DNA of 64,000 nt from Candidatus Micrarchaeota archaeon CG10_big_fil_rev_8_21_14_0_10_45_29 (GCA_002778455.1 PFCD01000005.1:4424-68423), one strand, 5' to 3'. Shown: positions 48,224-64,000, numbered from the stretch's first letter. Program-made: numbers and translations. Notes: generated by a model from the sequence alone, not told the origin.

Positions 48224-48805
48224 CTAAGTTTCCCTCAAAAGGGTTGCCAACTGCCAGTCATTCTCAAACATTTGCGCATATTCGCGCACCGCCTCCCCCT
48301 CTATAACCGCCCCGGCTTCCCTATTGCTATCAACCGCCGATTTTGAGAAATTAATCGAGCCCACAAGCGCCCTCTTCCCGTCCAAGAGCATCATCTTGGA
48401 ATGCGTAAGCTTAAACCCGGCAGATGCCCACCTCACAAGCACCCCTCCCTCAACAAGCGCCCCTGAAATTTCATCCAAATTATAAGAATTAACCCTTCCT
48501 TCCAAAATAACCCTCACTCTCACTCCCCTGCCGGCAGCCGTCACAAGCTCGCGCGCAATTTCCTCATTTGTAAATACATACATCTGGACATCTATGCTCT
48601 CTTGCGCAGAGCGTATCATTCCTATTATTTCCCCAGAGCTTCCGGGGGAAAAAACAGGCTCCACCTGCGCGCATCCCTCATTTTCAAAAAAAGAAACCCC
48701 TTGCCCGGAAAAAGAAAATTCCTGAGGAAAAAAAGAGGCTATAAAAAGAAAAATAATGGCACATGCGGCAATTCCGCCAAAAAACCCCCTCATCAAATCC
48801 TGCAT
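48224..48805 (-). CDS. Membrane-anchored phospholipase D-family protein with one HKD motif (Nuc endonuclease-like)
   Basis: N-terminal TM, AQESIDVQMYVFT, RGVRVRVI, THSKMMLLDG (HxKxxxxD), GSINFS, NRE. Confidence 0.88.
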   Translation of the reverse strand: MQDLMRGFFGGIAACAIIFLFIASFFPQEFSFSGQGVSFFENEGCAQVEPVFSPGSSGEIIGMIRSAQESIDVQMYVFTNEEIARELVTAAGRGVRVRVILEGRVNSYNLDEISGALVEGGVLVRWASAGFKLTHSKMMLLDGKRALVGSINFSKSAVDSNREAGAVIEGEAVREYAQMFENDWQLATLLRET

Positions 48806-48901
48806 AATCCGCCCACCATTTTTTTACGGCTTTTATGAAAAATAAATGCGCCGCCTATTTCCCTATTTGCCGCAAAATGCAAAAATTTTATTTCCGGCAA
48901 A

Positions 48902-49942
48902 TTATATGAGCTTTATAAGCCCCCGCCCCACCTCATTCAAATCCGCCCCAAAGAGGGCGCCTGTCTGGCGTATGAAAGTAAATGTAATAATAAGCGAGAC
49001 CATCGGCAAAAACAGCGCCTGCATATAAAAGAGGGGCAAAAAGTTTTTTGCCTTCTCTATAAATTCACTGATTTCCCCAGAGCTTCCCTGCACGCTTGCA
49101 GAAGCTATTATCATATCCGCCGAATCAAAGCCCCCCTCATACCTCTCAACATCCAAAAGAGCCGGGGGGGCAAATGTTGTGCAAAAAGAGCTTCCCGGAG
49201 GCTGAAGCGTCATCAGCATTGCAATTGTAATCGGATATACTGCAAAAAACCCGAATCCCATTGCAAGCAGCATTCCGCCCGCGCCTCTTGTAAATGGCAG
49301 TATTCTTAGCACAAGCCCAAGCTGTATAAGCACCGGCCCGACATACTTTATCAAAGAGAGAAAATTTATCTGCAGCCAGTGAAGAAGCAGCAGGAAATTT
49401 ATATGCCCTGCCAAATATTCCAAAAAGCTTGAATAAACCGTGCTATACCATCCGCCAACCATCTCCACTCCCAGCGTTTCGGTCTTTAGCGCCCCGATAA
49501 ACTTATAGAAAAAGTTTATGGCATACGCCACCCTGTAAATTATTATCTCACAGTCAATCATCGTCTCCTTCAAAAACACCTGCGCAAAAACAAATGGGTC
49601 AAAGCGCGCCCCCGCGCTATGCCCTGCGGCAAACGCGGGATAAGCCAAATACATCTCAGATGCCACATCCACCATCGTATTCCATGCCAAATTCATAAGA
49701 AGCACAAGCGCCCAAACAAGCAGAAACGTCACTATTACCTGCATGTATTCCCCTCTTGCCCATGCGCGCAAAGAAGGAATGTTAAATGAAATTCCTGCCA
49801 TATGCACAAGCACGACAATAAATAGCGCGGCAAGCCCCAGCACAGGTATGTTATTGCTCCACGCAACCCAGCTTTGGCTGTTCATAATCTGCTGCAAGAA
49901 AGCATCGTTTGCAACCACACTAGCCGTTGAATACATTAGCAA
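48902..49942 (-). CDS. Polytopic membrane protein, paralog 6 of 6 in the array (CedA/VirB6-like core)
   Basis: AWARGEYMQ; LGLVLRILPFTRGAGGMLLAMGFGFFAVYP; C-terminal FLPMVSL...FGADL...LIKLI. Confidence 0.8.
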   Translation of the reverse strand: MLMYSTASVVANDAFLQQIMNSQSWVAWSNNIPVLGLAALFIVVLVHMAGISFNIPSLRAWARGEYMQVIVTFLLVWALVLLMNLAWNTMVDVASEMYLAYPAFAAGHSAGARFDPFVFAQVFLKETMIDCEIIIYRVAYAINFFYKFIGALKTETLGVEMVGGWYSTVYSSFLEYLAGHINFLLLLHWLQINFLSLIKYVGPVLIQLGLVLRILPFTRGAGGMLLAMGFGFFAVYPITIAMLMTLQPPGSSFCTTFAPPALLDVERYEGGFDSADMIIASASVQGSSGEISEFIEKAKNFLPLFYMQALFLPMVSLIITFTFIRQTGALFGADLNEVGRGLIKLI

Positions 49943-49989
49943 ATTCCCCCCGCATTTTCCTCATCATTATTTATTATAAGCATACCCAC

Positions 49990-51225
49990 TCAAACCATCC
50001 TCGTCAAATTCGTCAAATCCATCTGCGTTCCCAGCGCGTGCGTAAGCTCTCTTGCAATCTCAATATATACTATAAAATTAATTATAGGCAAAAGCACTCC
50101 CGCAATCATATACATCATAACCGCCTGATAAGGCCAAATAACAACCGCGCCAAGCCTGTCTATGCCGCCTGATGCAAAATTTGTAAGCGGGTTTTCCCCG
50201 GGCTTGCTTTCAGTGAAATATTTTGCCACTTTTGCAGGGTCTGTATCAGCACTCTGTTGCAGCTGCCCGTCCGCACCTGCCTTCGGATCATAAAGCTTCC
50301 CAAACCCCTCACTTATGTTTGTAGCAGTTGCGGAAGGATATATTGTCTGCCCCTCAATCTGCGCCGCAGTTTGCGAATTGCTATCTATTAAATTAATCTG
50401 CTGCCCCCCCACCTGCCGGGTTATCCCCTCAAGCGAGGAATAAACTATCGCATCATTTAGCATGAGGGTTATGGGAAAGAAAAACATCGAGGCTATCGCA
50501 AGCCCCATCACCGCGCCCCCGAATTCGCGGGTAGGCAGAAAAGTGCGCAAAAGAAGCCCAAGCGGCAAAAAGAAATATGGCATGGAAAGAAAAAAGAAAT
50601 CCAGCACCCTCATCTGCACCAATATGCTCAAATAAGAGAGGGTAAAAGCGCTTATGGCAACCATAAAAATATTCATAAGCTGCTGAAAGCCTGCCAGCGG
50701 CTCAAGCGCGTAGCCTATTCCCATCGGGCTTGAATTCCAAGTCACCTTAAATATGTATGAGAGCGCATAATTTATGGCAATTAGCGCCTGGTATATATCA
50801 TCTCCTCTGGTTTTGACTTTTTTCAAATACCCCTGCGCAACGCAATAAGGGCTCACTTCCGCCGTTCCGGCAGAGGCAACATTAGTGGCATCCATGCAGT
50901 TTTGCATTATTTCCTGCCCGTGCGCCCCTCCATAATAATCCGGCGCAAGAAAAGAGACGTCCCAGTGGCACATGCCCCACATCCAGCCCATCACAAACAT
51001 CGCAAGAATTGCGGTCGCAACAATCTGGAAAAACTCAAAGCGCGCCCATGCCTGCAATTTGGGGATTCTTAGCGCGTTTGCGGCCATAAACACCGCAACC
51101 ACTCCCAAAGACATTGCAAAAAGGGATATAAACACAAGATAAAACCAGTTTCCGCCCACTATGTTATTCAGGCTCCAGTCGCTAAGAGCCGAGTCCAGCG
51201 AAATGCAATAATTTGGTATGTCCAT
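49990..51225 (-). CDS. Polytopic membrane protein, paralog 5 of 6 (CedA/VirB6-like core)
   Basis: AWARFEFFQ; LPLGLLLRTFLPTREFGGAVMGLAIASMFFFP; C-terminal LLPIIN...LGTQMDLTNLTRMV. Confidence 0.8.
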   Translation of the reverse strand: MDIPNYCISLDSALSDWSLNNIVGGNWFYLVFISLFAMSLGVVAVFMAANALRIPKLQAWARFEFFQIVATAILAMFVMGWMWGMCHWDVSFLAPDYYGGAHGQEIMQNCMDATNVASAGTAEVSPYCVAQGYLKKVKTRGDDIYQALIAINYALSYIFKVTWNSSPMGIGYALEPLAGFQQLMNIFMVAISAFTLSYLSILVQMRVLDFFFLSMPYFFLPLGLLLRTFLPTREFGGAVMGLAIASMFFFPITLMLNDAIVYSSLEGITRQVGGQQINLIDSNSQTAAQIEGQTIYPSATATNISEGFGKLYDPKAGADGQLQQSADTDPAKVAKYFTESKPGENPLTNFASGGIDRLGAVVIWPYQAVMMYMIAGVLLPIINFIVYIEIARELTHALGTQMDLTNLTRMV

Positions 51226-51234
51226 TTTTTATCC

Positions 51235-52503
51235 CTAAAATATTTTCTCAAAGGCGCTAAGGTCAATCTCGGTGCCAAGGAATTTCGTAATCTCCTTTAT
51301 TGCCGTCAGCGTAATAAATATGTTGAAAAGCGGCATTATTACAGACACTATAAGCGTGTAAAATAAAGTGGCTTTTAGCAATGAGAGGAAAAACACTATT
51401 ATAAACACAAAAATAAACGTGGAAGGAATAGAGCCTGTAAGAAATGTAAGCCCGCCCAATAATAGCAGGCTTCCAACTCCTGAATTATTGATGCTTTTCT
51501 CAATAAAATTAAGGCTCTCAACCCCTATGAGCCTGAAAAAGCATTTTATGCTCTCCCCCTGCCCGGCGGTGGAATCTGTGCATGAGCGCATATCTGTAAA
51601 TTCCGAGCCCAAATTGTTTGCATACACCCCTCCTCCTGCGAAAGTGGCCTCAAGGTAATTCTCAAAAGCAATCGCATTCAAATTAAGCACAAACGGGTAA
51701 ACAAAGTAAAACCCAATCGCTATTGCTATGAGCACATTGCCAAGCCTTGCATAGCCAAACGCCTTCATCAAAAGCCCTGGGGGCATAAGGGTTGCCATAA
51801 GCCGCTGCTGCACAAACAAAAGTATCCACAATTGCGCAAACCATGTGCCCACCGACACCGCCAGCATGGATAGCATTATTCCAAGCGAGTCAAATACGGG
51901 GCGAAACGCGGGCGCAAGAGAAAACGAAATTCCGATAACTCCGGCAGGCCTAAAATACGGTGTAATATTCCCTACAGTGGACAATATTGCAGTCAGCGTA
52001 GTCATGCTCAAAAATTCATAAATAATAGTGTTTCTCACGGTTTCTGCAAAATTTATCGCGTTTGTTATCTGCAAAAACCCTATTCCCATAAAGCTTGATG
52101 GCGCATTCTCAATTAACACAAAAGCCGCGGCAGAAATCGCAAGTATTATAGCCGACTGCCCCGCTCCGTTCATAAGCCCCCTTCCCCACGTGCTTATCCT
52201 TGGCCCAAAAAGCCCTGCAAACATTTCCGAGAGCCCGCCCAGCAGAAAGACGATAAAAAGCGCGATAAATGAGAGCACCACCCATCCATAATCCGGAGCC
52301 CTCACATCCCCGGCATCAATTCCCGGAGTAGGCGCCCAGAAATCCTTGAAAAGCAAATCAGGCACAAGCCAGCCCATAATTCCCTCATCGGCTGCGGCAT
52401 GCACAGGGGGCGCAAGAAACATCGGCACAATTAAAACAGCCAAAACAATAACCGCTGAGGCAACCGCCCCCGCCCTATTAATATGCAATTTATTTTCTTT
52501 CAT
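51235..52503 (-). CDS. Polytopic membrane protein, paralog 4 of 6 (CedA/VirB6-like core)
   Basis: Signal-like N-terminus; TWGRG; MPPGLLMKAFGYARLGNVLIAIAIGFYFVYP; C-terminal IMPLFN...LGTEIDLSAFEKIF. Confidence 0.8.
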   Translation of the reverse strand: MKENKLHINRAGAVASAVIVLAVLIVPMFLAPPVHAAADEGIMGWLVPDLLFKDFWAPTPGIDAGDVRAPDYGWVVLSFIALFIVFLLGGLSEMFAGLFGPRISTWGRGLMNGAGQSAIILAISAAAFVLIENAPSSFMGIGFLQITNAINFAETVRNTIIYEFLSMTTLTAILSTVGNITPYFRPAGVIGISFSLAPAFRPVFDSLGIMLSMLAVSVGTWFAQLWILLFVQQRLMATLMPPGLLMKAFGYARLGNVLIAIAIGFYFVYPFVLNLNAIAFENYLEATFAGGGVYANNLGSEFTDMRSCTDSTAGQGESIKCFFRLIGVESLNFIEKSINNSGVGSLLLLGGLTFLTGSIPSTFIFVFIIVFFLSLLKATLFYTLIVSVIMPLFNIFITLTAIKEITKFLGTEIDLSAFEKIF

Positions 52504-54084
52504 CTATATCAACCTGCTAAGCCCTGCAATCTCAATATCTCCCCCAAGCGTTGGCGAGAGAACCTTTATTGAAGATAATGTAACCATCAACGAAATAAAG
52601 GGCGCAAGAAGGCTGAACATAAAAAGCTTAGACATATTATCTATTGTCCCGTTTTTTCCAAGCAGCTCGTCCGTTGCAAATGCGCGCGATATTCCTCCCC
52701 TATAAGCCTCAATAAGCCTGTTATACCATGCATCCCTCTGCTTTGAGAGGATTGCGGCAGATTCCTCATCTGTCCCTGTTTTCTCAAAGCACACGCCTGC
52801 GATAACCTGCGCTTCCCTCGCAATTCTCTCTTCCCCGTTTGCGCTGCTTGCCAAATACTTCCTAAACTCATTCCCGAACGCCCCGTAATAATCATCAACG
52901 CAAACACAGTTGTTTGTGTCGCACACCTTTCCTACAGAACATGAGAAAGAGCCATTATGCGCGCTCATGCTATTTGCAACAACAGGCGCATCCGCATTTT
53001 CATTGCATTGCTCCCACGGCTCAATTTTCCCGTTCGCGCAATAATCAATCATCTTTTGCCCGTCATAGCCCTGCCCCCAGCCGCTTATTGTTTTTCCAAT
53101 CCCTGAAATATTCACCGGCCGCACCACTGCAGGCGTCACGCCCTCAAAATTCACATCTGTTTGCATAATGGACAGCCCTATTTGCGTTGCATCTGCCCCA
53201 ACCCACGGGCCTGTGAAAGAGAAAAGCACCGATGCCCAAAACACATACATCATCGGAAACACCAAATAAAAGCAAATGCCAATCGCTATTAAAAGCCCGC
53301 CCAGCTTTCGCGTGAAATAAAACATCCTAAAGAAAATTCCGGCGCACAAAAAGAACGGGAAAAACGCAAGATGCCAAAAATCAATCAAAAATTGCTGCGC
53401 CCGTATCACAAGCAAATTTTTCATAAGCAAATCAAATGCAAAGCTTAGCGTTTCCACAACAGGCGTAAGCCCCGCAAACGGGGACACCGAGAGCGCCCCG
53501 CCCGGCGCAGGAGTGCCTTTGAACCCAAGCCCCATGCTTGAGAGCACATACAAGAAAGACTCATACCTTACAATAGATGTTGCCTGCCCCTGCGTCGCCT
53601 TTGCAAGTATTTGCAGATAATCCTCGGCAATTCTTATGTGGCAGGGCCTATCCACTCCCGGCACATTGCAGCTTAAATCAACCCACGCGCCCCATGCCTG
53701 CCCTTCATTTCCCGCAAAAGTAATTGCAGGCAAAGTTGCGCTAAGCATTTGCACCTGCGATATCAAAATCGCGACACACACGAAAATAATTGCAGAATAC
53801 GCAATCTGCAAAAGCTCTGCCTTTACCCAAACCTTAATTTTGTCATCTGTTGCAAAGCTTGCATACAGCCAGGCAAGCACATAAATTCCTATCCCTATCC
53901 CGAATGCTGAGAGCATGGGCGCCTGCCATGCGCCCCACCACTCGCTAAATTTACTCATTATCCCCCCATAATCCGAAGCTCCCGCGCTTCCAACGCACCC
54001 TGAGAGGAAAATAAATGGCAATATTAGCACTAATGCAAATGCGCGCAACGCAAAACCTTTTTCCTGTTTATTTTCCACCGTCAT
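52504..54084 (-). CDS. Polytopic membrane protein, paralog 3 of 6, with lipobox-like N-terminus and Cys-rich loop
   Basis: FLSGC; VWVKAELLQ; AGIFFRMFYFTRKLGGLLIAIGICFYLVFP; CANGKIEPWEQC...CSVGKVCDTNNCVC; C-terminal LGGDIEIAGLSRLI. Confidence 0.8.
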   Translation of the reverse strand: MTVENKQEKGFALRAFALVLILPFIFLSGCVGSAGASDYGGIMSKFSEWWGAWQAPMLSAFGIGIGIYVLAWLYASFATDDKIKVWVKAELLQIAYSAIIFVCVAILISQVQMLSATLPAITFAGNEGQAWGAWVDLSCNVPGVDRPCHIRIAEDYLQILAKATQGQATSIVRYESFLYVLSSMGLGFKGTPAPGGALSVSPFAGLTPVVETLSFAFDLLMKNLLVIRAQQFLIDFWHLAFFPFFLCAGIFFRMFYFTRKLGGLLIAIGICFYLVFPMMYVFWASVLFSFTGPWVGADATQIGLSIMQTDVNFEGVTPAVVRPVNISGIGKTISGWGQGYDGQKMIDYCANGKIEPWEQCNENADAPVVANSMSAHNGSFSCSVGKVCDTNNCVCVDDYYGAFGNEFRKYLASSANGEERIAREAQVIAGVCFEKTGTDEESAAILSKQRDAWYNRLIEAYRGGISRAFATDELLGKNGTIDNMSKLFMFSLLAPFISLMVTLSSIKVLSPTLGGDIEIAGLSRLI

Positions 54085-54090
54085 ATTAAC

Positions 54091-55164
54091 CTATTCCAAT
54101 TTATTTGAGAAAAACTTTGTTCCGGCTTTTACAAACGTCACCACAAGCACCATGTTAAGCGCCGGCAAAAATACCGACTGCATCACAATATATGAAAGAT
54201 GCTTTGTAAACCCTCCCGCGCCTATGAAATCCTCTTTTAATTTGGGAAGAAGCTGCAATGATATGCTATCATACACCGCCCCCGCCCCGAAAACATAATC
54301 TGCCCTGTCCCAATTTTCTTTTCCGCTGCACATGGGATACCCGAAATCATCCTGATACATCTTATACATCACCTGCGCGTTTATCATATATGAGAAAGGC
54401 AAAATAAAATAAAACGCAAACGCAGTTGCAATCAAAAATCCCCCGGCATCGCGCGTGGGCGCAAACACCCTCATCAAAATTCCGGCAGGCAGCACAAGTG
54501 CAAGCGCAGTTGCATGCACTATCTCAAGCCCCACCTGCTGTGCAAAAAGGCTTGCGGTAAAGGGGGTAATAAACATAAGTATCAAATCAATCGAGCGCTC
54601 AATAACATCAAAACCCGGAAACGCTGGAAACGAGAAGCCCCAGCCGTATGTGGCTGCATAAAACCTTGCCTTCATCCCTGCAAGGTATTGCGCCCCCATT
54701 TTCATTCCCTCAAGCTTTAGCGTAGTGGCGCTTGAGACGCAAATCATCCTGTTAAGGTAATTGTGGGTAACATCAAACGCCCCCATCCCCCCGACGCCGG
54801 TAGTTTTTTGCACATAGTCGCCCACAACAGCATCTGCCGCAACCGCGCCAGCAAACAAAAGAAGCCCTATAAGCACGCTGATTATTCCCTGAAAAATTTC
54901 CGTCTTTGCAAACGCCTCCCATTCCGGGTTTTTTAGCGCCTGGGACGCCATATACACAAGCGAGGCGGCAAAAGCCATCATCGCAAGCCCAAGCGTAATA
55001 ATGTTTATTATCGGCGTATATTCGCTAATCGCAAATATATTTCCTCCCGCAATGGGCGCAATGCCCGCATCCTGCGCAAACAAAAAGCCGCAAAGCGCCA
55101 AGGCTGGCAAAACAAGCGCAAAGCACAACAATGCAAATTTTTTATTTTCCATTTCTTCTGCCAT
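54091..55164 (-). CDS. Polytopic membrane protein, paralog 2 of 6 (CedA/VirB6-like core)
   Basis: AFAKTEIFQ; LPAGILMRVFAPTRDAGGFLIATAFAFYFILP; C-terminal FLPALN. Confidence 0.8.
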   Translation of the reverse strand: MAEEMENKKFALLCFALVLPALALCGFLFAQDAGIAPIAGGNIFAISEYTPIINIITLGLAMMAFAASLVYMASQALKNPEWEAFAKTEIFQGIISVLIGLLLFAGAVAADAVVGDYVQKTTGVGGMGAFDVTHNYLNRMICVSSATTLKLEGMKMGAQYLAGMKARFYAATYGWGFSFPAFPGFDVIERSIDLILMFITPFTASLFAQQVGLEIVHATALALVLPAGILMRVFAPTRDAGGFLIATAFAFYFILPFSYMINAQVMYKMYQDDFGYPMCSGKENWDRADYVFGAGAVYDSISLQLLPKLKEDFIGAGGFTKHLSYIVMQSVFLPALNMVLVVTFVKAGTKFFSNKLE

Positions 55165-55195
55165 TTTTTATTTTTTCATACTTTTTCCCGCCGCA

Positions 55196-56662
55196 TCATA
55201 TCAATTTGCTCATTCCAAACACCCTCGGCTCCCCGCCTATTGCCAAACTGATGTCTTTGAACATTGTAATAGAAATAACTATTGAATTTGCCAAAAACAG
55301 CAAATTAAGCACAAACCAGCTCATGCTTGCGGTAAACTCATCAACCATCGCCTCAAAAAAATACTCTGTAGGCAAAATAGGGCCGGTAATCCCTTCAAAA
55401 TTAATCATATATTTTGCAACAATAGGCACGTTTTTCCCAAATGCATCCGCAAGCGCATTTCCCTGGCTTGCAGGAAGCTGCACATCAACGCTATACTTTG
55501 AATTCGGGTCGCTCCCGTCCCATGCCCCCAGCACAACCCCTGTTGTCTCTTTTGTTTCCTGCTCAAATTCAATAAGCTGCCCCTTTACTCTCTCAACATA
55601 TTCGCTCTGGCTCTCCCCCGCTCCCGGCTTGCAAATATCAAGCAGTGAATGGTAATTTGTCCAGTTTATCAGCTCATCCGCGCCAATGCTAAAGTAAATC
55701 TGCTCATTTATCCATATGCTCATAGGATACACAAAATACATCACAAGCGCTATTGCGATAAGGGTGGCGCCCGTCTTTCTCAAAAAAGGTATTGCCCTAA
55801 AGCCCACTCCAAGAGGCAAAAATACCGCCAACGCGCTAGTGTAGACAAATTGAAGCAGCACCTTTTGCGCAACAATAGAGCCAACTCCCATTCCCACCAA
55901 ATCCGTAATCATAATCATTGCCTCGGAAATCGGCGTCAGCCCCGCATTTGGCGCCATGTCAAGGGAAATTGAGCTGATAAGCGGCTCAGGCAAATAGGCG
56001 CTTACCCCGAAAGTGGAAAGCGTGCCAAGCATAAACTCAAGAGAGAAAAGCCCCACATAAATATTCATCATATGCCCAAGCATCACGCCAGAACTTCTCC
56101 CCGTGTCCTTGTCATCCCATTGAAGCTCATACAGGCTTGCCACATCCTCATCAGGCCCTGCTTCCATAAGATTTTTCACATATTTGTCTTTCTCAAGCGG
56201 CATGCAGCCCAAGAACCAGTCAACATTTGCAAAAAGAAGGGTTTGAGGCCGCTCATTTATCGTATTCATCTTATACACTGTGGCACTGTCCTCGCAAATC
56301 ATTATAGGCACATTAGGCTGGCTGTCCAAAAGCTTTGAGGTTGCAACGTTTTTTGCAAATTCCCCGTATGCCGCCAATCCTCCGGCTATTAGCACCACTA
56401 TAATTATGGTGGCGGCAAGCTCATACAACTCCTGCTTTGCAAACGCCTTTATGGCAGGAATATTTGTCACTTCTCCAGCCATAAAAGAAAAGGCAACAAA
56501 AAGCACCCCTATCATAAGCCCTGCAAAAACCAGCGTAGCATCCTTTGCAAGCGAAAAAGAGGCGCTTGAGCCTGCGCTCGCGGACCAAACAGATGCAGTT
56601 ATGGCAACAATCGCAACTAAAGCAATAAATGCCCTAAAATTTTGCCCCACCATCACATTCAC
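55196..56662 (-). CDS. Polytopic membrane protein, paralog 1 of 6 (CedA/VirB6-like core)
   Basis: AFAKQELYE; LPLGVGFRAIPFLRKTGATLIAIALVMYFVYP; C-terminal IGGEPRVFGMSKLI. Confidence 0.8.
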   Translation of the reverse strand: MNVMVGQNFRAFIALVAIVAITASVWSASAGSSASFSLAKDATLVFAGLMIGVLFVAFSFMAGEVTNIPAIKAFAKQELYELAATIIIVVLIAGGLAAYGEFAKNVATSKLLDSQPNVPIMICEDSATVYKMNTINERPQTLLFANVDWFLGCMPLEKDKYVKNLMEAGPDEDVASLYELQWDDKDTGRSSGVMLGHMMNIYVGLFSLEFMLGTLSTFGVSAYLPEPLISSISLDMAPNAGLTPISEAMIMITDLVGMGVGSIVAQKVLLQFVYTSALAVFLPLGVGFRAIPFLRKTGATLIAIALVMYFVYPMSIWINEQIYFSIGADELINWTNYHSLLDICKPGAGESQSEYVERVKGQLIEFEQETKETTGVVLGAWDGSDPNSKYSVDVQLPASQGNALADAFGKNVPIVAKYMINFEGITGPILPTEYFFEAMVDEFTASMSWFVLNLLFLANSIVISITMFKDISLAIGGEPRVFGMSKLI

Positions 56663-56794
56663 TTAACCTCTGTTTGCTTTTAAATCATTCCGAACCGCGG
56701 AAAGAGGGAGTTTTACCCCCTCTTTTATTTATGTTTCACCCTTATTTTTCATCACTTAAAATCATTTATAAATACCCTGCCCCTAAATTCTAAC
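56663..56794. promoter_or_regulatory. Divergent promoter region
   Basis: 132-bp AT-rich gap with TTTATAAA (56765-56772) about 25 nt before the GTG at 56795, TTTTAAA near 56678, and an inverted repeat AAAGAGGGAG/CCCCCTCTTT at 56701-56725. Confidence 0.5.
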
Positions 56795-59700
56795 GTGAAA
56801 GCGCAAATACTTGCACTGGCATGCCTACTGATATTGCTATCTCCCCTCTACGCCCAAGCCGCGCAAGACACAACATCCGCCGCCTCCCAAGCGCTCTCAA
56901 CAAATTTTCTGGACGACCAATATTCCTCCAACATACAATTTGACCTCTCCAATTTTGCAATCGGGGGCGATATGGCAATAAACGCAACCTATAAGGAAAT
57001 AAGCTTATACAATACCGGAGGAATAATAGACAACAAGCAAAGCATCACCACTATAAAAATAGCAAAAAAAGCATTGGTAAGCTTTTACATAGACAACGAA
57101 ACAATCCCCATAACCGACTCAACAGGAAAGCCGATTTGCCAAAACCTTCTCACAGACAAGAATGGGCGCGCCTCATGCAATATCGCCTATGCCAAAAACC
57201 CCTCCGGCGCAGGCGCGCTTGCAATCCAAAGCTGGCCGCATCCGCGCCCGATTTTAATAGCAAAGCTTCACTCCTCGCTTGAAAACCAGAAAATAAAGCC
57301 ATCTATGGCATCAATTCCCCTCTGGACAAAGGACTCCTACAACCCGGTAATATTTCGCGCATTCTCAAGCGCGATAAACGGGCAAAGCATTTTCCTCTGC
57401 ATTCCCATCATCGTGGTATTCGGACTGCTTCTTGCCTCAATGCAATACCACGGGCACAACCCCCTATCGCTCTTTGACATCACCGTGCCGCGCATGCCAA
57501 ACATAAAAAAAGTAAGAATGAAATCCCCCGCCGTGCCTGTGCACCTTGCAATGAAGGGGCGCCTCTCCGCCCGCCTCATGGGGCGCACCGAGAAAGGAAT
57601 ATCCTCGCAGATAACCTCGCTTTACAAAAAAAACAAAAAAGATTCGCGCAACATAAAAAAGGAAATAGACGCGCTTTTCCCAAGAAGAAAAATAGTAAGA
57701 AAAGCCGGCGCGTTCGGCAAGGAAGAGGCATATCAGGCAGCGCTCGCCCGCCTCAAAAAACTAATAGATGAATCCGGAGCATCCGAGAAGGACCGCAACC
57801 GCGCATATGCAAACGCCCGACGCCTTATGGAAGTGCGCGAGGTGCTGGCGCTCGATGACAAGGTAACCGGCGCGGCAAGAGGGGGGCAATACAAGCACCC
57901 AGGCAAAATAAACCCTGTAATAGATTACGCAGCAACCCGCCTTGCAAAGCCCTGGAAGCTTATACCATCAATCGCAAAGCAGGAATGGGCAGACAACCTG
58001 CCCGGGCTTCCCTATGTTGAGCGCGCGGGGATTGTTGCGCAAGGATGGCTTGCAGGGCGCGCGGGAAACTTAAGGATGCGCCGCTCGCTCTACAAATCTT
58101 TGGCAGCAGAATCCGCCCTGGCGCTCGGGCTTGCAAGCCGAGAGAGCAAATTCATAAAAGCAAATATTTTCGAGGAAAAAAAGCTTGGCGAAATTCCGAG
58201 AATAGTTGAGAAGATGCGCCAGGAATCCTACCAGCTTGCGCGCGCTCTCATGGATGAGCATCTGCGCACCCTAACATTAGGCATAGTGCTAAGGCAAAAA
58301 AACAAGGACGGCGCGCCCGAGCTTTTAATGGATAAAAAAAGCCTGGAATATGTAAAAAAGCTTGAGCAGCAAATTCGCGCAGAAATAGAGCGGAAAGTCG
58401 CTTCAGGGCAAATACTAAAGGAATTCGCAGAATATTATTTTAAAGAGAAAATGATGATTCAGCTTGCAGATTATATAAAGAAAAACAACATCTCTTTGCA
58501 AGACGTAACCGGGCAAGCGCTTAGCAAGCAGGAGCTTCAGGATTTCCTTGTCTCTGCAAAGCTTTACGCGACAAAAGTGCGCGAGCTTCTTGTAGAGGAC
58601 GGCTTGAGCGCCGGGGGCGGGCGCTACCCCGACCTTACGTCCGAGCAGGCAAAAAGAATGGACCCAAACCAGGTTTACAGGCGCTACACAGAATTAATAG
58701 GAATACTCGACAATATCTCAAAAGACACTTTGGGGAAAGGAAGGCTCCCCCTTGTGATGCTTGGGCATGATTTGGCAGAAATTTTCGGCAAAGCCGTGGA
58801 TATGCGCCGCCTGCGCGGGGAAATCTCCGCAGACGATGCAACAAAAATGCAGCTTATTCGCGTATATATGGAAACCGAGCTTGTGAAAAAGCAACTCTAT
58901 GACTATATAATATCCAACCGCTCGCTTGCAAGCATGGATAAGCCGCAGCTGGAACCCCTGCTTGGCAGCGGGCTTCTCAACTCCAAATGGCTCAAAGCGC
59001 TTGAGGATGCCACCAAAATGCAAAAAGTGCTTGAGCCGCTTAACTACACTTTGCGAGGCGAAGCCGCATCAAGAAATTTCCTAACCTCTTTTTATGCCCA
59101 CGACACTCCGTATGCAGTAGAGCTTGAGAAAAACAAAATAAGGGTGTTGCGCGAGCTTTTCACCTACCAATTTGACCGCGGGTTTGAAGACCTTTTCAAA
59201 AATTATGATTTGCAGGTAAGCAAAAATTTAATGACTTACCATTCAATGAAATCCCTTATCTCCCATTACATGGACGGGGCGCAATGGAATGCAGAAAATT
59301 ACAACGCATGGCTCAAAAAAGGCGCGACATACGGGGACATAAGAAAAGGGGTATGGATAATAGACGCCAACCACAACATCCTGCCATTTGCATCAGGCTT
59401 CAAATTCGACGGGCAGGGGCGGGCGGCGGAGGCGTATGCAAAATTCAAAAACGGGCATCTTACATATGATCACACCACCTTCGGCCTTATGGGCTCCGAC
59501 TATGCACAGCGCCCAATAAACGCAACTTTAATGTTCAAAAACCCGCAAGGCAACTGGAAGGCAGGCACCTCCGCAGACGCGCAAACAGACAAAATATTAA
59601 CTCAGCTAAAGCAATACCATTTTGCCCTCTCCTCCTCCACCTATGGCGGAAAGCTTCTTTTCTCAGGCTATTCTTCTGACGGGAAAACCCCTGCAGGCAT

Positions 59701-62275
59701 TCAGGAGGCAGGGCTCTCAAGAAAAGACATCATGAAAAACATAGAAACTTTGCAAAAATCCTTAGGAGAGAGAATGCGCCTTGTCACCCGCGCATCGCTT
59801 GAGGATGACCCCTCGCACAACTCGCTTTTGCGCTCATGGTATAAGGCAACAAACTTTGTAGAAAGGGTAACGCGCGGAGGCATAAACGACCTTGACATGC
59901 GGTTGCAGGAATGGTATGCGTCCCAAACATATGCGCGCATGGTTCTCTCAACATATGAGAGCGACATGAAAAAAGGCATATTCTACTCTGATGAGACGCA
60001 AAAATCCCTCACCTCAAAAGAAGAGCTAAATGAAATGCGCAAACAGCAGATAGAGCTTATGAAAAACCCGCACCTGGGCGCGGATGAGCGCGCACGCCTC
60101 TCCCGCCTCACCAATGTGGAAATTCCGGCGCAAATTACCGCTGTGCGCACAAATGAGCAGATGGCAAGAAAAATGCAGCGCGAACTTGGATGGGTTGACA
60201 GGCATCTTAAAAGCCTTGAGGTTTATGGCATGTTTTACAATGTGGCGGAAAACACCGTCATGAGAGACCCGCGCATCACATTCGGAAATTCATGGGGGCT
60301 GGGCCCTGCGCTGCAATCCGGTTACCACTCAGGGCAATTCGTAGGCGAGCACCCCCAGATGTGGGCAGGCTACCATCTTCTTCCAGGGGACAGATTAATG
60401 AATTTCTTTGCGCGCCCCTCTTACTGGGCAGCATCCGCCTTTGCTCTTCACACCCGCACATTTTTCACAAAGATGACCGGCTATGCAACGGTTTATCACC
60501 AAGACCCTGAATACGGCTTTGACAAGCAGGGCGCCCCAAGCTCGCACGAGCCATCCGTAGTGGAAGCAATACAATCCCTTTTCAAGCCAACCACAAGCTT
60601 TGACTGGCTATCGCGCACCTTTTTGCGCCCAATGGTGCGCCGCCCCTCCGACTACACCGATGAATTCGGCGTGCGCCTGCGCGAGGACAGTGTTGTGGGA
60701 ATGCGCTATAGAATGCCCCTCTCATTCAAATTCTCTGACATTCAGGGAAAGAACGCCGATTCCTTTGGAATAGATGATGCGCGCTTTAAGCAAATTGGCA
60801 CAGGCGCCGCAGATGAGATGAGGCGAAGAAAATTCGGGCTCACATTCCGCGAGGAATTCATGATGTGGAATAAGCGCTATGACGCGCAAATGCAGACAAG
60901 CTCGCACGAGATGATGGATTCGCTAAAATCCCACCTCGCATCCGCCACAAGTGCGCAGGAGAGGCAGATGATACGCGCGCAAATGCAGGAAGTGCGCGAC
61001 ATTTACCACACAGCAGAGAGGGCGGCGTGGAAAATTCCTATTGTGCGCGACTTTGCGCGCCAAGGGTATTATGCTGTGGAAAACCGCTCAGGCTATGACA
61101 TAAACACAATCGGAGGAGTGCACCGTGGCTATGAATTATCAGGCCCATGGCACAAAACAATTGCAAAAGCGCCGATTCCGGGAATGATTTGGACTGATTG
61201 GGAAGGGCGCGCACAGCCATACGGCTATGTAACAAACACAATTTTCAACAATTTGCAGGATTCCGGAAAAATAAAAGACAGCGGGCTTGCGCAAATGCTT
61301 CGCAACATCTCTCCTGAGAGGCGCGAGCTTGCATCAGCCTCATTTAGCGAGGAGGATGCAAACGATTATATGCTAAAAAGCGGGCTGGGGCGCCACCTTG
61401 CCTCAGACTCCTTGCGAGACCTATACAAAAACGAAACCCCTGTCATCCTTGAGTTTGAAAAAGTTGAGCGGCAAAAGCAGCAATTCCAGTATTCAAACTC
61501 ACCTTATATTTTCCCAATAGCCCCGGCGTATGTGCTTGCATACCAGATGTTTAAAAAATCCGCATATGGAAGAAGCCAGCCATGGTCATCAACTCAGGCG
61601 CGCCCCACAGACAGCGCAATAACTCCCCAGCAGGATGCAGAGCATGCGCAAATGATGCATGCAAGGCAAATGGCTATCGCCTCTGCTTCACAAACCTACT
61701 CCTGCCCGGCGCACGGCATAACTTTGCAAACAGGGCAGCAATGCCCGCTTTGCGCAAGCAGCGAGGAAAGAAAGCTTCATGCCCAGGATTCGCGCCTAAA
61801 GCAGTCCGCAAGAAAATCCTACGAGCTTGCAAAAAACTGGGCTCTCTCTGCCGCCTCTTTGGGTGGCACTATTCCCATCGGAAATTATAACCAATATTTC
61901 AACTCAGCCCGCTGCCCCCATCACGGCATTCCCTTTGAGAGGGGCACAGTATGCCCCATGTGCCTTGAAAACCAGGTAAAAACAGTTGAGGGCTTCAGCC
62001 ACGAGGCTGCGCGCGAATACCAGCGCAAGCTAAAAGATTATATGCGCGAGATAAACCGCACTGCCCGCGACCGCCACCTTGATGAAGAGCAAAGAAACAA
62101 GGAAATATTGCGCCTTATGCGCGAGCGCGATGAATATGACAAATTCCAGCAAGGGCAAATAAGCCGCGACAAGCGCCTTGGCTACAGCGAATCCTATGTC
62201 TTTTTGCAAAACCAGATAAAAACGATTGCAGAGAACGACAAAAAATACCGCTACACTCTAAAATTTGAAAAATAA
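56795..62275 (+). CDS. Giant (1826 aa) single-pass membrane protein of unknown function with two C-terminal CPxHG...CPxC motifs
   Basis: Signal peptide, about 180-aa beta-rich ectodomain, TM IFLCIPIIVVFGLLLASM, basic helical remainder, CPAHG...CPLC and CPHHG...CPMC. Confidence 0.85.
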   Translation: MKAQILALACLLILLSPLYAQAAQDTTSAASQALSTNFLDDQYSSNIQFDLSNFAIGGDMAINATYKEISLYNTGGIIDNKQSITTIKIAKKALVSFYIDNETIPITDSTGKPICQNLLTDKNGRASCNIAYAKNPSGAGALAIQSWPHPRPILIAKLHSSLENQKIKPSMASIPLWTKDSYNPVIFRAFSSAINGQSIFLCIPIIVVFGLLLASMQYHGHNPLSLFDITVPRMPNIKKVRMKSPAVPVHLAMKGRLSARLMGRTEKGISSQITSLYKKNKKDSRNIKKEIDALFPRRKIVRKAGAFGKEEAYQAALARLKKLIDESGASEKDRNRAYANARRLMEVREVLALDDKVTGAARGGQYKHPGKINPVIDYAATRLAKPWKLIPSIAKQEWADNLPGLPYVERAGIVAQGWLAGRAGNLRMRRSLYKSLAAESALALGLASRESKFIKANIFEEKKLGEIPRIVEKMRQESYQLARALMDEHLRTLTLGIVLRQKNKDGAPELLMDKKSLEYVKKLEQQIRAEIERKVASGQILKEFAEYYFKEKMMIQLADYIKKNNISLQDVTGQALSKQELQDFLVSAKLYATKVRELLVEDGLSAGGGRYPDLTSEQAKRMDPNQVYRRYTELIGILDNISKDTLGKGRLPLVMLGHDLAEIFGKAVDMRRLRGEISADDATKMQLIRVYMETELVKKQLYDYIISNRSLASMDKPQLEPLLGSGLLNSKWLKALEDATKMQKVLEPLNYTLRGEAASRNFLTSFYAHDTPYAVELEKNKIRVLRELFTYQFDRGFEDLFKNYDLQVSKNLMTYHSMKSLISHYMDGAQWNAENYNAWLKKGATYGDIRKGVWIIDANHNILPFASGFKFDGQGRAAEAYAKFKNGHLTYDHTTFGLMGSDYAQRPINATLMFKNPQGNWKAGTSADAQTDKILTQLKQYHFALSSSTYGGKLLFSGYSSDGKTPAGIQEAGLSRKDIMKNIETLQKSLGERMRLVTRASLEDDPSHNSLLRSWYKATNFVERVTRGGINDLDMRLQEWYASQTYARMVLSTYESDMKKGIFYSDETQKSLTSKEELNEMRKQQIELMKNPHLGADERARLSRLTNVEIPAQITAVRTNEQMARKMQRELGWVDRHLKSLEVYGMFYNVAENTVMRDPRITFGNSWGLGPALQSGYHSGQFVGEHPQMWAGYHLLPGDRLMNFFARPSYWAASAFALHTRTFFTKMTGYATVYHQDPEYGFDKQGAPSSHEPSVVEAIQSLFKPTTSFDWLSRTFLRPMVRRPSDYTDEFGVRLREDSVVGMRYRMPLSFKFSDIQGKNADSFGIDDARFKQIGTGAADEMRRRKFGLTFREEFMMWNKRYDAQMQTSSHEMMDSLKSHLASATSAQERQMIRAQMQEVRDIYHTAERAAWKIPIVRDFARQGYYAVENRSGYDINTIGGVHRGYELSGPWHKTIAKAPIPGMIWTDWEGRAQPYGYVTNTIFNNLQDSGKIKDSGLAQMLRNISPERRELASASFSEEDANDYMLKSGLGRHLASDSLRDLYKNETPVILEFEKVERQKQQFQYSNSPYIFPIAPAYVLAYQMFKKSAYGRSQPWSSTQARPTDSAITPQQDAEHAQMMHARQMAIASASQTYSCPAHGITLQTGQQCPLCASSEERKLHAQDSRLKQSARKSYELAKNWALSAASLGGTIPIGNYNQYFNSARCPHHGIPFERGTVCPMCLENQVKTVEGFSHEAAREYQRKLKDYMREINRTARDRHLDEEQRNKEILRLMRERDEYDKFQQGQISRDKRLGYSESYVFLQNQIKTIAENDKKYRYTLKFEK

Positions 62276-62307
62276 GCTTAATAAAAGCCAACCGCCAAAC
62301 TTTTTAC

Positions 62308-64000
62308 ATGAAAAACGCGCTATTTATAGCTTTGGCATTGTTTTGCATTATCCTTCTTTTCGGATGCATACATCCGGGCACACTGGGCGCCCAAGACCGC
62401 TTTAATTCCAAAACAACAATTAATGTCTCGCAAAAAACAAATCTTGAGCCTGCATCAGATTCCGCCACACCCTGCACCTGCATGATATGCTCTCAGGAAG
62501 AGCCATCTATTTTTGATGAGATTTGGTATGCATTAGGAATACAGGATAAATTAATAGAAAATGATTTGCAGGGCGCCAACTGCTATTTTGAAGCATGCAA
62601 CTCCTCAATTTACGCCTCTCTTCTCTCAGAATTTGATGCGGGAAAAGGGGTATGGGCGCAGTGCCCGCAAGACGCCTCCTCTTCCTCTTCAGGCAATTCG
62701 CAAAACAAATATGATGATAAGGTATGCGCCCCCCGCTACTTTATGCTGGGGCAGGGCGCCTCTTCCGCAGAATTTTCCCTTGCACAAAGATATTGCTCAG
62801 GACGGCTTAACATGCCGATAATTTGGGCATATTCCAAGGACGGCAAGGAGCCGCCCAAGCCCCCCTCTCCCCAAACCTTAATGTGCCATCTCTCAAAAAG
62901 CCAGATGCCTTTTGTAATATGGTATAGCAACGCCGAGCATATTGATGATGAGGCATACAAAAAAATGGTTGACTCTTACAATGATGCAACAGATGACCCG
63001 CCAACAGAAGGGCCGATAATGCTAAGCACAGAGGCTTTGCTTGAGCCTTACAAAACAAACGCAAAAGGCGAGAAATTCCTTAACATTCAAATGCTTGAGA
63101 AAGTGCGCGCGCAAATAGATTACACTGCCCTCAACTGCCCCTCCTGCATTCCCGTGCTTGCCCTCAAGCCAACCTTTACAACCGACGGCTTGCCTGATTT
63201 GTGCCCAATAGACTATTTCCTGCGCTTTAACACCTCTCTTGCGGATTTGGGGGGAGACCCGCTCAACTGCTCATCAAAATACGAGAACCCGTCCCAATAT
63301 TCCTCACGCCCCGCAACCCGCGAGAATTACCTAAAAAAAATAGGGGCAATCGGAATAGCTTTTATTGCAAATGAAAACGCAAACCTCACCACCTGCACCC
63401 CTATGTATGATATCGCGCGCCATCTGCGCTATTCTGATGAGCTTTTATTGCATTACCACTCTCCTTCTGTTTGGTATGCAGTCGGAATTTCCCCAGGCGC
63501 CACAAACACCCCCAACTGCGCATTTAGCGAGGCGGAAGTGGCGGATGCGTATAGCTTTTTGATGGCAGGAATACCCGGCTTTGTCGCAAGCGGGGTAATA
63601 GGCGTCTCGCCCTACACATTTCTTTCCTCAACCGCGCCTCTTCCATGCAAAAGCCAGCTCTCTTACGGCTCTTTAGACTATGCCGCTTTCTCCTCAATAG
63701 GGGCAAATAAAAAATTCACCACTTTGCAAGGGGCTCAAATAAACTCAACAAAAGTATTTTTCAAAAACGACACACACCTCTCTTTTCAGGATGAATTTTC
63801 AAACTACTATATCGCATATTATGATGAGCCAACATTCTCCTTTATGCTCAACCTCACAGGATGCAACTTCGGCTTTAGGCAAACTGACGGCTCTATGCAA
63901 AACCTCACCTCTTTCTCCTGGTTTTCTGCCTGCCAGCTATACTTTACAAACAACGCGCCCCTATTTGAGGCAGACATATCCTCAATTTCGCAAATTCGCG
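62308..64000 (+). CDS. Large Cys-rich lipoprotein of unknown function, 3' truncated by window edge (more than 564 aa)
   Basis: Manually translated from MKNALFIALALFCIILLFGC (lipobox-like FGC). The frame has no stop to the window end, so the ORF track missed it. Confidence 0.85.
   Translation, partial: MKNALFIALALFCIILLFGCIHPGTLGAQDRFNSKTTINVSQKTNLEPASDSATPCTCMICSQEEPSIFDEIWYALGIQDKLIENDLQGANCYFEACNSSIYASLLSEFDAGKGVWAQCPQDASSSSSGNSQNKYDDKVCAPRYFMLGQGASSAEFSLAQRYCSGRLNMPIIWAYSKDGKEPPKPPSPQTLMCHLSKSQMPFVIWYSNAEHIDDEAYKKMVDSYNDATDDPPTEGPIMLSTEALLEPYKTNAKGEKFLNIQMLEKVRAQIDYTALNCPSCIPVLALKPTFTTDGLPDLCPIDYFLRFNTSLADLGGDPLNCSSKYENPSQYSSRPATRENYLKKIGAIGIAFIANENANLTTCTPMYDIARHLRYSDELLLHYHSPSVWYAVGISPGATNTPNCAFSEAEVADAYSFLMAGIPGFVASGVIGVSPYTFLSSTAPLPCKSQLSYGSLDYAAFSSIGANKKFTTLQGAQINSTKVFFKNDTHLSFQDEFSNYYIAYYDEPTFSFMLNLTGCNFGFRQTDGSMQNLTSFSWFSACQLYFTNNAPLFEADISSISQIR

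Follow-up and report, generated by a model that had tools for sequence, protein, structure and literature searches.

Gene content of the locus

The window analysed here, a stretch of 64,000 nucleotides from an archaeal genome (G000:C19:4424-68423; G000 denotes the genome of this archaeon, which comprises 1.146 Mb on 20 contigs and is 84.65% complete), contains between positions 48224 and 64000 a cluster of genes for membrane and exported proteins. Six consecutive minus-strand genes encode paralogous membrane proteins. They are followed by a co-oriented gene for a protein of the phospholipase D (PLD) family, and a divergent intergenic region separates them from plus-strand genes for an 1826-aa protein and a lipoprotein. 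A preliminary description, made from the sequence alone, had assumed a symbiotic DPANN-type cell, and the names of the database relatives (Candidatus Micrarchaeota, Micrarchaeia, Anstonellaceae and 'Microcaldota') identify the organism as a member of the Micrarchaeota, and thus of DPANN. Seven DNA sequencing runs among the matches listed, from groundwater or aquifer metagenomes, contained the locus, and none of the RNA runs among those searched did. The reading that we favour, with a probability of roughly 0.68, is that the locus represents half of a chromosomal, vertically inherited apparatus that resembles type IV secretion systems (T4SS), more specifically those of the Ced, Ted and monoderm mating-pair formation kind.

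The six genes are numbered in array order, p1 (488 aa, 55196-56662) being the first and p6 (346 aa, 48902-49942) the last; between them lie p2 (357 aa, 54091-55164), p3 (526 aa, 52504-54084), p4 (422 aa, 51235-52503) and p5 (411 aa, 49990-51225). All open reading frames (ORFs) were found as previously described, as consecutive, diverged paralogs of 346-526 aa on the minus strand with gaps of 0-47 bp (47, 9, 0, 6 and 31 bp in ascending coordinates), and they are probably co-transcribed as one operon. Five of the proteins were assigned by matches to the family profile, and p2 was the member used for structure modelling. A lipobox-like LSGC motif is present near the N-terminus of p3, and p6 has five hydrophobic segments.

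The identities of the six proteins to the first sequence of their alignment are 19-24%. In pairwise phmmer searches against all 5049 ORFs of G000, most pairs were linked with E-values of 1e-12 to 1e-3, and no ORF outside the family reached E<1e-3 with any of the six. Because of these links, and because of the absence of such non-family ORFs, the likeness exceeds chance, and on sequence grounds the six genes are true, highly diverged paralogs. The most diverged one is p4, for which pairwise links were found only to p1, p2 and p5.

A profile built from the six window paralogs alone retrieved eight further members from G000 (E 1.8e-35 to 7.4e-8). Seven of them form a second array on contig C7, with one fragment and two fusions, and one is a lone copy on contig C12. 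The fused subfamily-3 member of the C7 array (L013:2550-6422, +) has a total length of 1290 aa, of which about 450 aa or more form a C-terminal extension, and the fused subfamily-5 member (L013:8247-10187, +) has a total length of 646 aa, including an N-terminal extension of about 270 aa. Similar fusions occur in the relatives G009, G033 and G123. Together, the two loci of 18-19 kb make up about 3% of the 1.15-Mb genome.

Six ancient subfamilies in a fixed order

Arrays were fetched from ten relatives spanning several families, and a tree was calculated with 71 members from 11 genomes. The tree contained six clades that correspond to array positions 1-6, with values of 96, 97, 84, 82, 98 and 95, respectively, in the Shimodaira-Hasegawa-like approximate likelihood ratio test (SH-aLRT), and p1 to p6 belong to subfamilies 1 to 6. 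Placing the position labels on the tree required 18 changes, compared with 46.6 for shuffled labels, and this number was reached in 0 of 200 shuffles. Three seemingly shifted arrays (G060, G098 and C7) are collinear with the others once a missing or extra gene is allowed for. The six genes belong to six ancient orthologous subfamilies, which keep one fixed order. All 168 database relatives in hand could be sorted into these subfamilies (61, 32, 24, 20, 19 and 12 members). The C7 array groups, position by position, with the array of G009, and therefore both arrays of G000 stem from a duplication of the whole array.

The family is large and widespread. When 1.84 billion proteins were searched with a profile of 11 paralogs, 3162 cluster representatives matched at E<=1e-3, and 755 of these reached E<=1e-30. 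All 31 genomes of the order contained family matches (8-19 per genome, G000 included), as did 111 of the 121 genomes that were sampled from the phylum (G000 and the unpublished G051 included); the ten genomes without a match belong to the families f16, f17, f20, f22 and f23. The subfamily trees follow genome relatedness. As a side observation, family matches from some genomes in the phylum (G045:C11:123134-124201 and G117:C50:10022-11143) contain two to three in-frame TGA codons; these could be pseudogenes, or TGA could be reassigned in those lineages.

A hetero-oligomer with one copy of each protein would best explain six conserved, non-interchangeable paralogs in one operon. The hetero-oligomeric channel of the preliminary description is thus made plausible by the six orthologous subfamilies and their fixed order. 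A complex prediction for p5 and p6 with subfamily alignments gave a score of 0.15 at a mark of 0.32, which counts neither for nor against the proposal.

VirB4-like ATPases and pilin-like genes

G000 encodes four DUF87-type ATPases, and the copy on C3 is HerA-like. A search for VirB4/HerA-type genes had been suggested, and two others of the four are VirB4-like. The 523-aa ATPase on C5 (C5:3469-5040) passes all three Pfam cut-offs (DUF87 59.6, AAA_10 54.6 and P-loop_TraG 43.8 bits), and the 512-aa ATPase on C8 (C8:62535-64073) passes those of DUF87 (53.5 bits) and AAA_10 (33.3 bits), its P-loop_TraG score of 25.0 bits being lower than the cut-off of 25.8. Both proteins thus have an FtsK/HerA-type P-loop domain of the VirB4/TraC/TraG type. 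They also matched the NCBIfam models CedD, VirB4_plasma, CedB, TraC, CD1110 VirB4-like and TIGR00929 VirB4 with E-values of 3e-22 to 1e-10, all scores being below the equivalog cut-offs. In addition, a 581-aa protein encoded on C6 (C6:87237-88982) is a VirD4/TrwB-like coupling-protein homologue, because it contains the domains TrwB_AAD_bind (4.3e-11) and T4SS-DNA_transf (5e-5); its gene is unlinked to the arrays.

Analysis of the relatives revealed physical linkage between array and ATPase. In G123, G033 and G098, the array is followed 3', on the same strand, by five genes, which encode two homologues of the 270-aa bitopic protein of C5, an ATPase orthologous to that of C5 (E 1e-219 to 1e-232), the Zn-ribbon membrane protein and the protein of 255 aa. 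The same order, extended by a homologue of about 800 aa of the 863-aa protein of C5, was found in G059, G128 and G039, that is, in three of five complete genomes, belonging to two further families. In total, the array adjoins a VirB4-like module in 6 of 15 relatives. C5 of G000 keeps the order 270 / ATPase / Zn-ribbon / 255 / 863, and C8 contains a second, diverged module with the order 260 / 512 / 283, so that two modules match two arrays. We infer that the ancestral cluster was split after p6 in G000 and that the module moved to C5 and C8.

A second type of linkage was found in G063, G128, G039 and G059, four of five complete genomes from other families. There, a lone family member adjoins a second, diverged VirB4-like ATPase with 25-38% identity to the C5 ATPase, which is a minimal pair like CedA plus CedB next to the six-gene array. 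The lone C12 paralog of G000 was considered for such a pair and rejected, the 498-aa neighbour not being an ATPase; a pilin-like protein of 81 aa is encoded 1.2 kb away from it.

The presence of VirB4-like and VirD4-like ATPases is also what would be expected if the locus were the mating-pair formation module of an integrated conjugative element, and in tblastn searches against plasmids the C5 ATPase matched TraC and CD1110-type VirB4 genes with 25-28% identity in 299 records, 146 of which are typed as conjugative. We regard this explanation as hardly credible, however, because family matches occur in most of the genomes sampled from the phylum, the subfamily trees agree with the relatedness of the genomes, chromosomal neighbours such as the glycogen synthase gene are kept in G001 and G010, and the G+C content of the locus (0.46-0.48) is similar to that of the rest of the window. 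Moreover, G000, which is 84.65% complete, gave no matches to the relaxase families PF03432 and PF08751 at E<=0.1, other relaxase families not having been searched. The view that the locus is chromosomal and accompanied by no relaxase gene, which had been taken before, is thus in line with these searches and with the conserved synteny.

Small proteins with a signal peptide, two hydrophobic helices and a basic loop are encoded directly upstream of p1 in G123, G033 and G039, and G000 contains five homologues. A search for VirB2/CedA1-like pilins had been suggested, and these proteins are candidates. However, only one of seven such proteins, a G000 homologue, matched VirB2/TrwL, and this match was weak (E 5.9e-3), so that the label 'pilin' is a lead and not a finding. 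Matches to T4SS_pilin and to the pilin-like Mbov_0395 fall on the N-terminal hairpin of members of the paralog family itself. According to the available part of one report, CedA1 of the Ced system forms a pilus that is structurally similar to T4SS pili (PMC11868833). Taken together, these observations would fit an alternative in which the T4SS-like hardware mainly builds an adhesive pilus of the conjugative type for host attachment, as in Ced and Ted, without any substrate passing through the platform. We consider this unlikely, given that the pilin assignments are weak and that G000 encodes a VirD4/TrwB-like coupling ATPase, an enzyme usually tied to substrate delivery. The outside-facing Nuc-like PLD protein and the SLT-like hydrolase described below suit transfer as well as adhesion, and pilus building and transfer are not mutually exclusive.

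A further gene group with an ATPase is located on C3. A single minus-strand run (G000:C3:36177-41698, L050) comprises a pilin-like gene of 149 aa, two membrane proteins of 445 and 693 aa and the HerA-like ATPase of 501 aa, which matches HerA models with an E-value of 3e-54, below the cut-off. This run may be a third membrane-associated ATPase system instead of a repair HerA.

Similarity of the paralogs to VirB6 and CedA

VirB6 proteins have about five transmembrane (TM) helices, an N-out/C-in orientation and a large extracytoplasmic loop after TM2. Hydropathy analysis showed a signal or anchor segment plus five TM segments for most family members. The AlphaFold2 model of p2, calculated with an alignment of 115 sequences, had a predicted local distance difference test score (pLDDT) of 85.2 and a predicted template modelling score (pTM) of 0.76, and its helices 47-77, 80-122, 184-233, 235-274 and 319-352 flank a helix/beta-hairpin domain at residues 129-180. 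Hydropathy and model thus agree with the topology of TrbL/VirB6, and the orientation would be the same.

At the sequence level, 115 members were scanned singly. CedA matched 5 of them (best E 4.5e-4) and CedE matched 3 (best E 1.2e-5), and these were the only NCBIfam families that matched more than two of the 115 members, all matches being sub-threshold. In the window, p3 matched CedA (NF041796) with an E-value of 0.0099, residues 199-329 aligning to profile positions 103-234 of 259, and CedE (NF053657) with an E-value of 0.047. CedE is a CedA paralog with five TM helices and a structural homologue of VirB6, as stated in the accessible text of its description (PMC11868833).

At the level of the fold, a Foldseek search with the p2 model against 350,542 PDB chains placed R388 TrwI/VirB6 at ranks 1, 2 and 5 (probabilities 0.98, 0.99 and 0.69; E 0.027-0.12; TM-scores 0.23-0.40), the chains at ranks 1-2 being 8rtd_L and 8rt9_F with E-values of about 0.03. 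A VIA alignment of the model with TrwI 8rt9_F covered 242 of 272 residues with a Z-score of 9.1 and a root-mean-square deviation of 6.4 Å, and TrwI/VirB6 was the only VIA match that spanned nearly the whole model. We infer VirB6 homology of the paralogs from the sub-threshold sequence matches, the fold of the p2 model and the gene context, three lines that are independent of one another and individually weak. The earlier designation as CedA/VirB6-like is thus the best available assignment, although the thresholds of CedA and TrbL were missed.

A considerable number of results weigh against the T4SS-like reading. The best CedA match in the window had 15.5 bits, compared with a curated equivalog cut-off of 330, and the CedE match of p3 had 12.3 bits, compared with a cut-off of 400. 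TrbL/VirB6 (PF04610) had no match in G000 at E<=1, and it was not among the 25 families listed, of 52 in total, for the 115 members at E<=1. The 115-sequence profile matched nothing among the PDB sequences at E<=10. No Foldseek match of the p2 model reached E<=1e-3, and the TM-scores were low (0.32-0.40). In a VIA search independent of Foldseek, VirB6 was outside the top 50, which consisted of helical hairpins on p2 residues 127-219. Because 205 chains reached Z>=8 in this search and VirB6 was not in its top 50, the fold match is not specific by its Z-score alone, and the fold evidence on its own would not carry the claim of VirB6 homology. With regard to the partners, the N-terminal VirB4 domain PF03135 (CagE_TrbE_VirB) was not found at E<=0.1 in G000 (84.65% complete), neither the C5 nor the C8 ATPase gene is adjacent to an array, and the array is unlinked to an ATPase gene in nine relatives (G063, G054, G060, G113, G001, G010, G005, G024 and G009), the last five of which provided the five fetched arrays of the window's own order. 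The single weak VirB2/TrwL match belongs to the same list, as does the lipoprotein of the window, for which no match to SLT (PF01464) was obtained at E<=10.

Several of these results would be expected if the paralogs were a lineage-specific polytopic family without any relation to T4SS, active in envelope biogenesis, S-layer anchoring or transport, and if the VirB6 likeness were that of a generic helical bundle. None of the six window paralogs matched a Pfam family at E<=1, and TrbL and PDB sequence matches, a specific VIA result and an ATPase gene next to the G000 array are lacking, as described above. An hhalign comparison of the family with a putative monoderm channel protein, a 779-aa hypothetical protein of a Pontibacillus VirB4 cluster whose own VirB6-likeness is unestablished, gave a probability of 0.15. 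Nevertheless, a family unrelated to T4SS seems improbable to us, as it would leave unexplained that only CedA and CedE match more than two of the 115 members, that VirB6 chains occupy ranks 1, 2 and 5 among 350,542 chains and alone match nearly the whole p2 model, and that the array adjoins a VirB4-like module in six relatives.

Other candidate relationships were tried and dropped. A profile of the six paralogs retrieved from the PDB sequences only LSm14 chains, at chance level (E 0.69-1.4). ABC exporters appeared in the VIA list of p2 only through helical hairpins of 70-85 residues, and no GspF/TadB rows were among the matches listed. A confident match to an ABC permease or a TadB/C platform, which would have spoken against the original assignment, thus did not arise in this list.

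Genes flanking the array

The gene for the 1826-aa bitopic protein (56795-62275, +) is divergent to the array. The protein has a signal peptide, an ectodomain of about 170 aa and a TM helix at about 198-216, and only two hydrophobic segments, at residues 5 and 198, were detected by hydropathy analysis. Because it has a signal peptide and a single TM helix, the remaining C-terminal part of about 1600 residues, a helical region, must be cytoplasmic. The protein had been described as a giant, single-pass surface protein; the single TM helix was indeed found, whereas only about 170 residues are outside. As the protein is mostly cytoplasmic, the proposal that it is a large partner for host contact had to be abandoned. 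Two zinc-ribbon-like motifs, CPxHG...CPxC, are present near the C-terminus. No match was found to families in Pfam, NCBIfam, PHROGs or the PDB, the PDB rows being at chance level, and the ESM Atlas gave no usable match. Beside the protein itself, 18 homologues were found, all of which are unnamed and contain no Pfam domain, and the conserved blocks are residues 201-235, 1147-1190 and 1423-1465. A Walker-A candidate, GYSSDGKT at residue 958, was discarded because it is not conserved in four orthologues. The AlphaFold model of residues 1001-1600, based on 19 sequences, was unusable (pLDDT 55.9, pTM 0.36).

The next gene (62308-64000, +) encodes a Cys-rich, extracellular lipoprotein with the lipobox LLFGC, of which the first 564 aa lie in the window. 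A length of more than 564 aa had been given, and the full length is 975 aa, with a putative SLT-like C-terminal domain past the end of the window. SLT (PF01464) matches two of five lipoprotein orthologues (best E 2.2e-5). The hallmark blocks of SLT domains are a catalytic Glu-Ser, GLMQ and an AYNxG-type motif, and in an alignment of the four full-length orthologues, GE(G)S, GLMQ and YNPFNP were found as conserved blocks. In searches against PDB sequences, the profile of five orthologues gave nothing and the single 975-aa protein gave only chance-level rows. A VirB1-like role of the lipoprotein is plausible. The gene directly downstream (C19:69691-70749, +; L009:9692-10750) encodes a YkuD_2 L,D-transpeptidase domain (E 1.8e-15) in a protein of 352 aa. 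The presence of two putative wall enzymes of the murein type in one archaeal locus may indicate that the partner has a peptidoglycan-like wall.

The giant protein and lipoprotein genes are divergent to the array in G001, G010, G005 and G024, that is, for all but one of the five arrays analysed in the order; the exception, that of G009, is of the C7 type. The synteny survey that had been proposed thus showed that the layout of array, giant gene and lipoprotein gene is kept in four relatives. Neither the giant nor the lipoprotein was detected beside the arrays of other families, which are flanked by different large proteins.

The PLD gene (48224-48805, -) encodes a protein of 193 aa that resembles Nuc and NucT and matches PF13091 (PLDc_2) with an E-value of 1.6e-29 (102.9 bits, cut-off 27). 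Its translation contains a single HKD motif, HSKMMLLD, and an N-terminal hydrophobic anchor, just as had been described for a co-oriented, membrane-anchored, single-HKD protein following the array, and the catalytic domain is predicted to be outside the cell. It was the only protein with a PHROGs match. NCBIfam matches to DrmC (1.5e-16) and NucT (6.6e-15) were below the cut-offs, the NucT models scoring 34-55 bits with cut-offs of 211-351. The closest solved relatives are Nuc of pKM101 (1byr, 2.3e-12) and NucT (6ehi, 8.2e-10). The suggested likeness to Nuc was thus borne out in so far as Nuc is the closest solved relative, but the link is only family-deep. Chains of phospholipase and of mitochondrial cardiolipin hydrolase score nearly as well as Nuc, so that the protein may be either a nuclease or a phospholipase. 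The PLD gene adjoins the array in G001 and G010, and not in G005 and G024, that is, in two of the four relatives with the conserved layout, and therefore it is a recent accessory.

Between the array and the giant gene, the divergent intergenic region of 132 bp (56663-56794) was confirmed, and it may contain promoters for both directions. A/T-rich, TATA-like elements are found about 15-30 nt upstream of each start codon. Midway between these elements, an 8-bp inverted repeat (AAAGAGGG ... CCCTCTTT) with a 9-nt loop is located at 56701-56725; it could be the operator for a shared regulator.

Two further observations concern genes outside the locus. Downstream on the contig (C19:73731-76821, -; L009:13732-16822), four tandem paralogs of 252, 253, 259 and 269 aa are 24-45% identical to one another; they gave no convincing Pfam family, and an adjacent 221-aa gene had no match to them. 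Elsewhere in the window (36250-38502, -), the gene next to that of GluRS encodes a DEAD/Helicase_C protein of 750 aa, the C-terminal part of which is an MrfA Zn-binding domain; this protein is unrelated to the array.

Discussion

Even though the array does not reach the thresholds of CedA and TrbL, its most likely mode of action is that of the inner-membrane platform of a T4SS. In a possible mechanism, the paralogs would have an N-out/C-in topology in which, as in VirB6, TM2 and TM3 are separated by an extracytoplasmic helical-hairpin domain, and they would assemble into a hetero-oligomeric platform or channel in the membrane that probably contains a single copy of each. The VirB4/CedB-like ATPase module would power this platform, and the 270-aa bitopic proteins might dock the ATPase. 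The SLT-like lipoprotein could be an enzyme that opens the wall in the manner of VirB1, the Nuc-like PLD protein with its membrane anchor could be an accessory extracellular nuclease, and the 1826-aa bitopic protein could be a cytoplasmic scaffold or substrate receptor. The machine would then mediate contact-dependent transfer with host or partner cells, and its cargo could be DNA, nucleotides or proteins. Uptake of DNA or nucleotides by the locus is purely conjectural.

The nearest relatives are the Ced and Ted systems of Crenarchaeota, in which CedA and CedE are VirB6-like, CedB and CedD are VirB4/HerA-like and CedA1 is the pilin. These systems and that of Micrarchaeota are archaeal, chromosomal, relaxase-less and T4SS-like. 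CedA and CedE are the best recurrent sequence matches of the paralogs, and the ATPases of G000 match CedD and CedB. However, none of the scores comes near the equivalog cut-offs of the Ced models. Ced contains one or two VirB6-like proteins of about 260 aa, whereas the Micrarchaeota have six subfamilies of 310-650 aa in a fixed array that is often duplicated. Two 270-aa bitopic proteins, giant bitopic proteins, an SLT-like lipoprotein and a PLD protein also set the Micrarchaeota system apart from Ced. We know of no link of the Micrarchaeota system to UV (ultraviolet light) or Ups. The five TM segments of the paralogs equal the number of TM helices reported for CedE in the available part of PMC11868833.

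A second parallel is found in bacteria. The rvh T4SS of Rickettsiales has five tandem VirB6 paralogs and a duplicated VirB4, is distributed over scattered islets and is vertically inherited, according to the text accessible in PMC2653234. Like the Rickettsiales, the Micrarchaeota archaeon is a host-dependent organism with a reduced genome, and G000 has six tandem paralogs, two VirB4-like genes and scattered modules. In contrast, rvh belongs to diderm bacteria, is of the P type and includes VirB8-11, our analysis gave no sequence relationship between it and the Micrarchaeota array, and its five VirB6 paralogs compare with six subfamilies and two arrays in G000.

TrwI/VirB6 of R388 (PDB 8rt9, 8rtd and 7o3v, T4SS stalk), the top Foldseek match of the p2 model, is the product of a single gene and forms a homo-oligomer with VirB5. 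The paralogs are 10-14% identical to TrwI, without similarity at the level of hidden Markov models, and no VirB5 was identified in the Micrarchaeota system. Nuc of pKM101 and NucT of H. pylori were the best matches to the PLD protein among solved structures, and both are associated with T4SS or competence loci; the PLD protein differs from both by its N-terminal membrane anchor, and its scores are below the NucT equivalog cut-offs.

T4SS-like genes have also been discussed for other small symbionts. Patescibacteria (the candidate phyla radiation, CPR) are ultra-small episymbionts with relaxase-less, chromosomal T4SS-like genes that have been proposed to act in host interaction (PMC12102498, as far as its text was available). 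Nanohaloarchaea, which are likewise ultra-small episymbionts with relaxase-less T4SS-like genes, have SPEARE proteins, or giants bearing VirB4/TraG, with a proposed role in host interaction (PMC10266531, likewise in part), whereas the 1826-aa giant has no detectable ATPase domain. An array of six VirB6 paralogs is not described in the accessible parts of these two publications. A search of the literature on T4SS-like genes of DPANN and Micrarchaeota, which covered few subscription journals and no supplements, also retrieved no description of such an array. The new elements are the six ancient orthologous subfamilies in a fixed order and with a near phylum-wide distribution, the second array of G000 on C7 and the two unlinked VirB4-like modules.

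A more specific proposal is possible, but we make it only tentatively. The six-subfamily array and the VirB4-like module would form a hetero-hexameric, T4SS-derived translocon at the contact site of Micrarchaeota and host, fixed in the common ancestor of the phylum and vertically inherited, with which these archaea, poor in biosynthetic pathways, would either take up DNA or nucleotides, processed by the Nuc-like PLD protein at the surface, or inject effectors. If this were true, the translocon would be an archaeal parallel to the T4SS of Saccharimonadia, which is reported to be essential for epibiotic growth, and to rvh of Rickettsiales, and the SLT-like and YkuD-like wall enzymes would suggest that the partners have a wall of the murein type.

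It is still unclear by which route DPANN archaea acquire building blocks such as nucleotides and lipids from their hosts, and, to our knowledge, no dedicated transfer machine has been defined for Micrarchaeota so far. The results turn 'hypothetical proteins' into a gene set that is nearly universal in the phylum and comprises six VirB6-like subfamilies, two 270-aa bitopic proteins, a VirB4-like ATPase, a Zn-ribbon membrane protein, pilin-like proteins and an SLT-like lipoprotein. These proteins are targets for cryo-electron tomography, proteomics and antibody localisation in existing Micrarchaeota co-cultures. If the paralogs are indeed VirB6 proteins, the fixed array of six would be a natural experiment in which a homo-oligomeric T4SS channel was turned into a hetero-oligomeric one.

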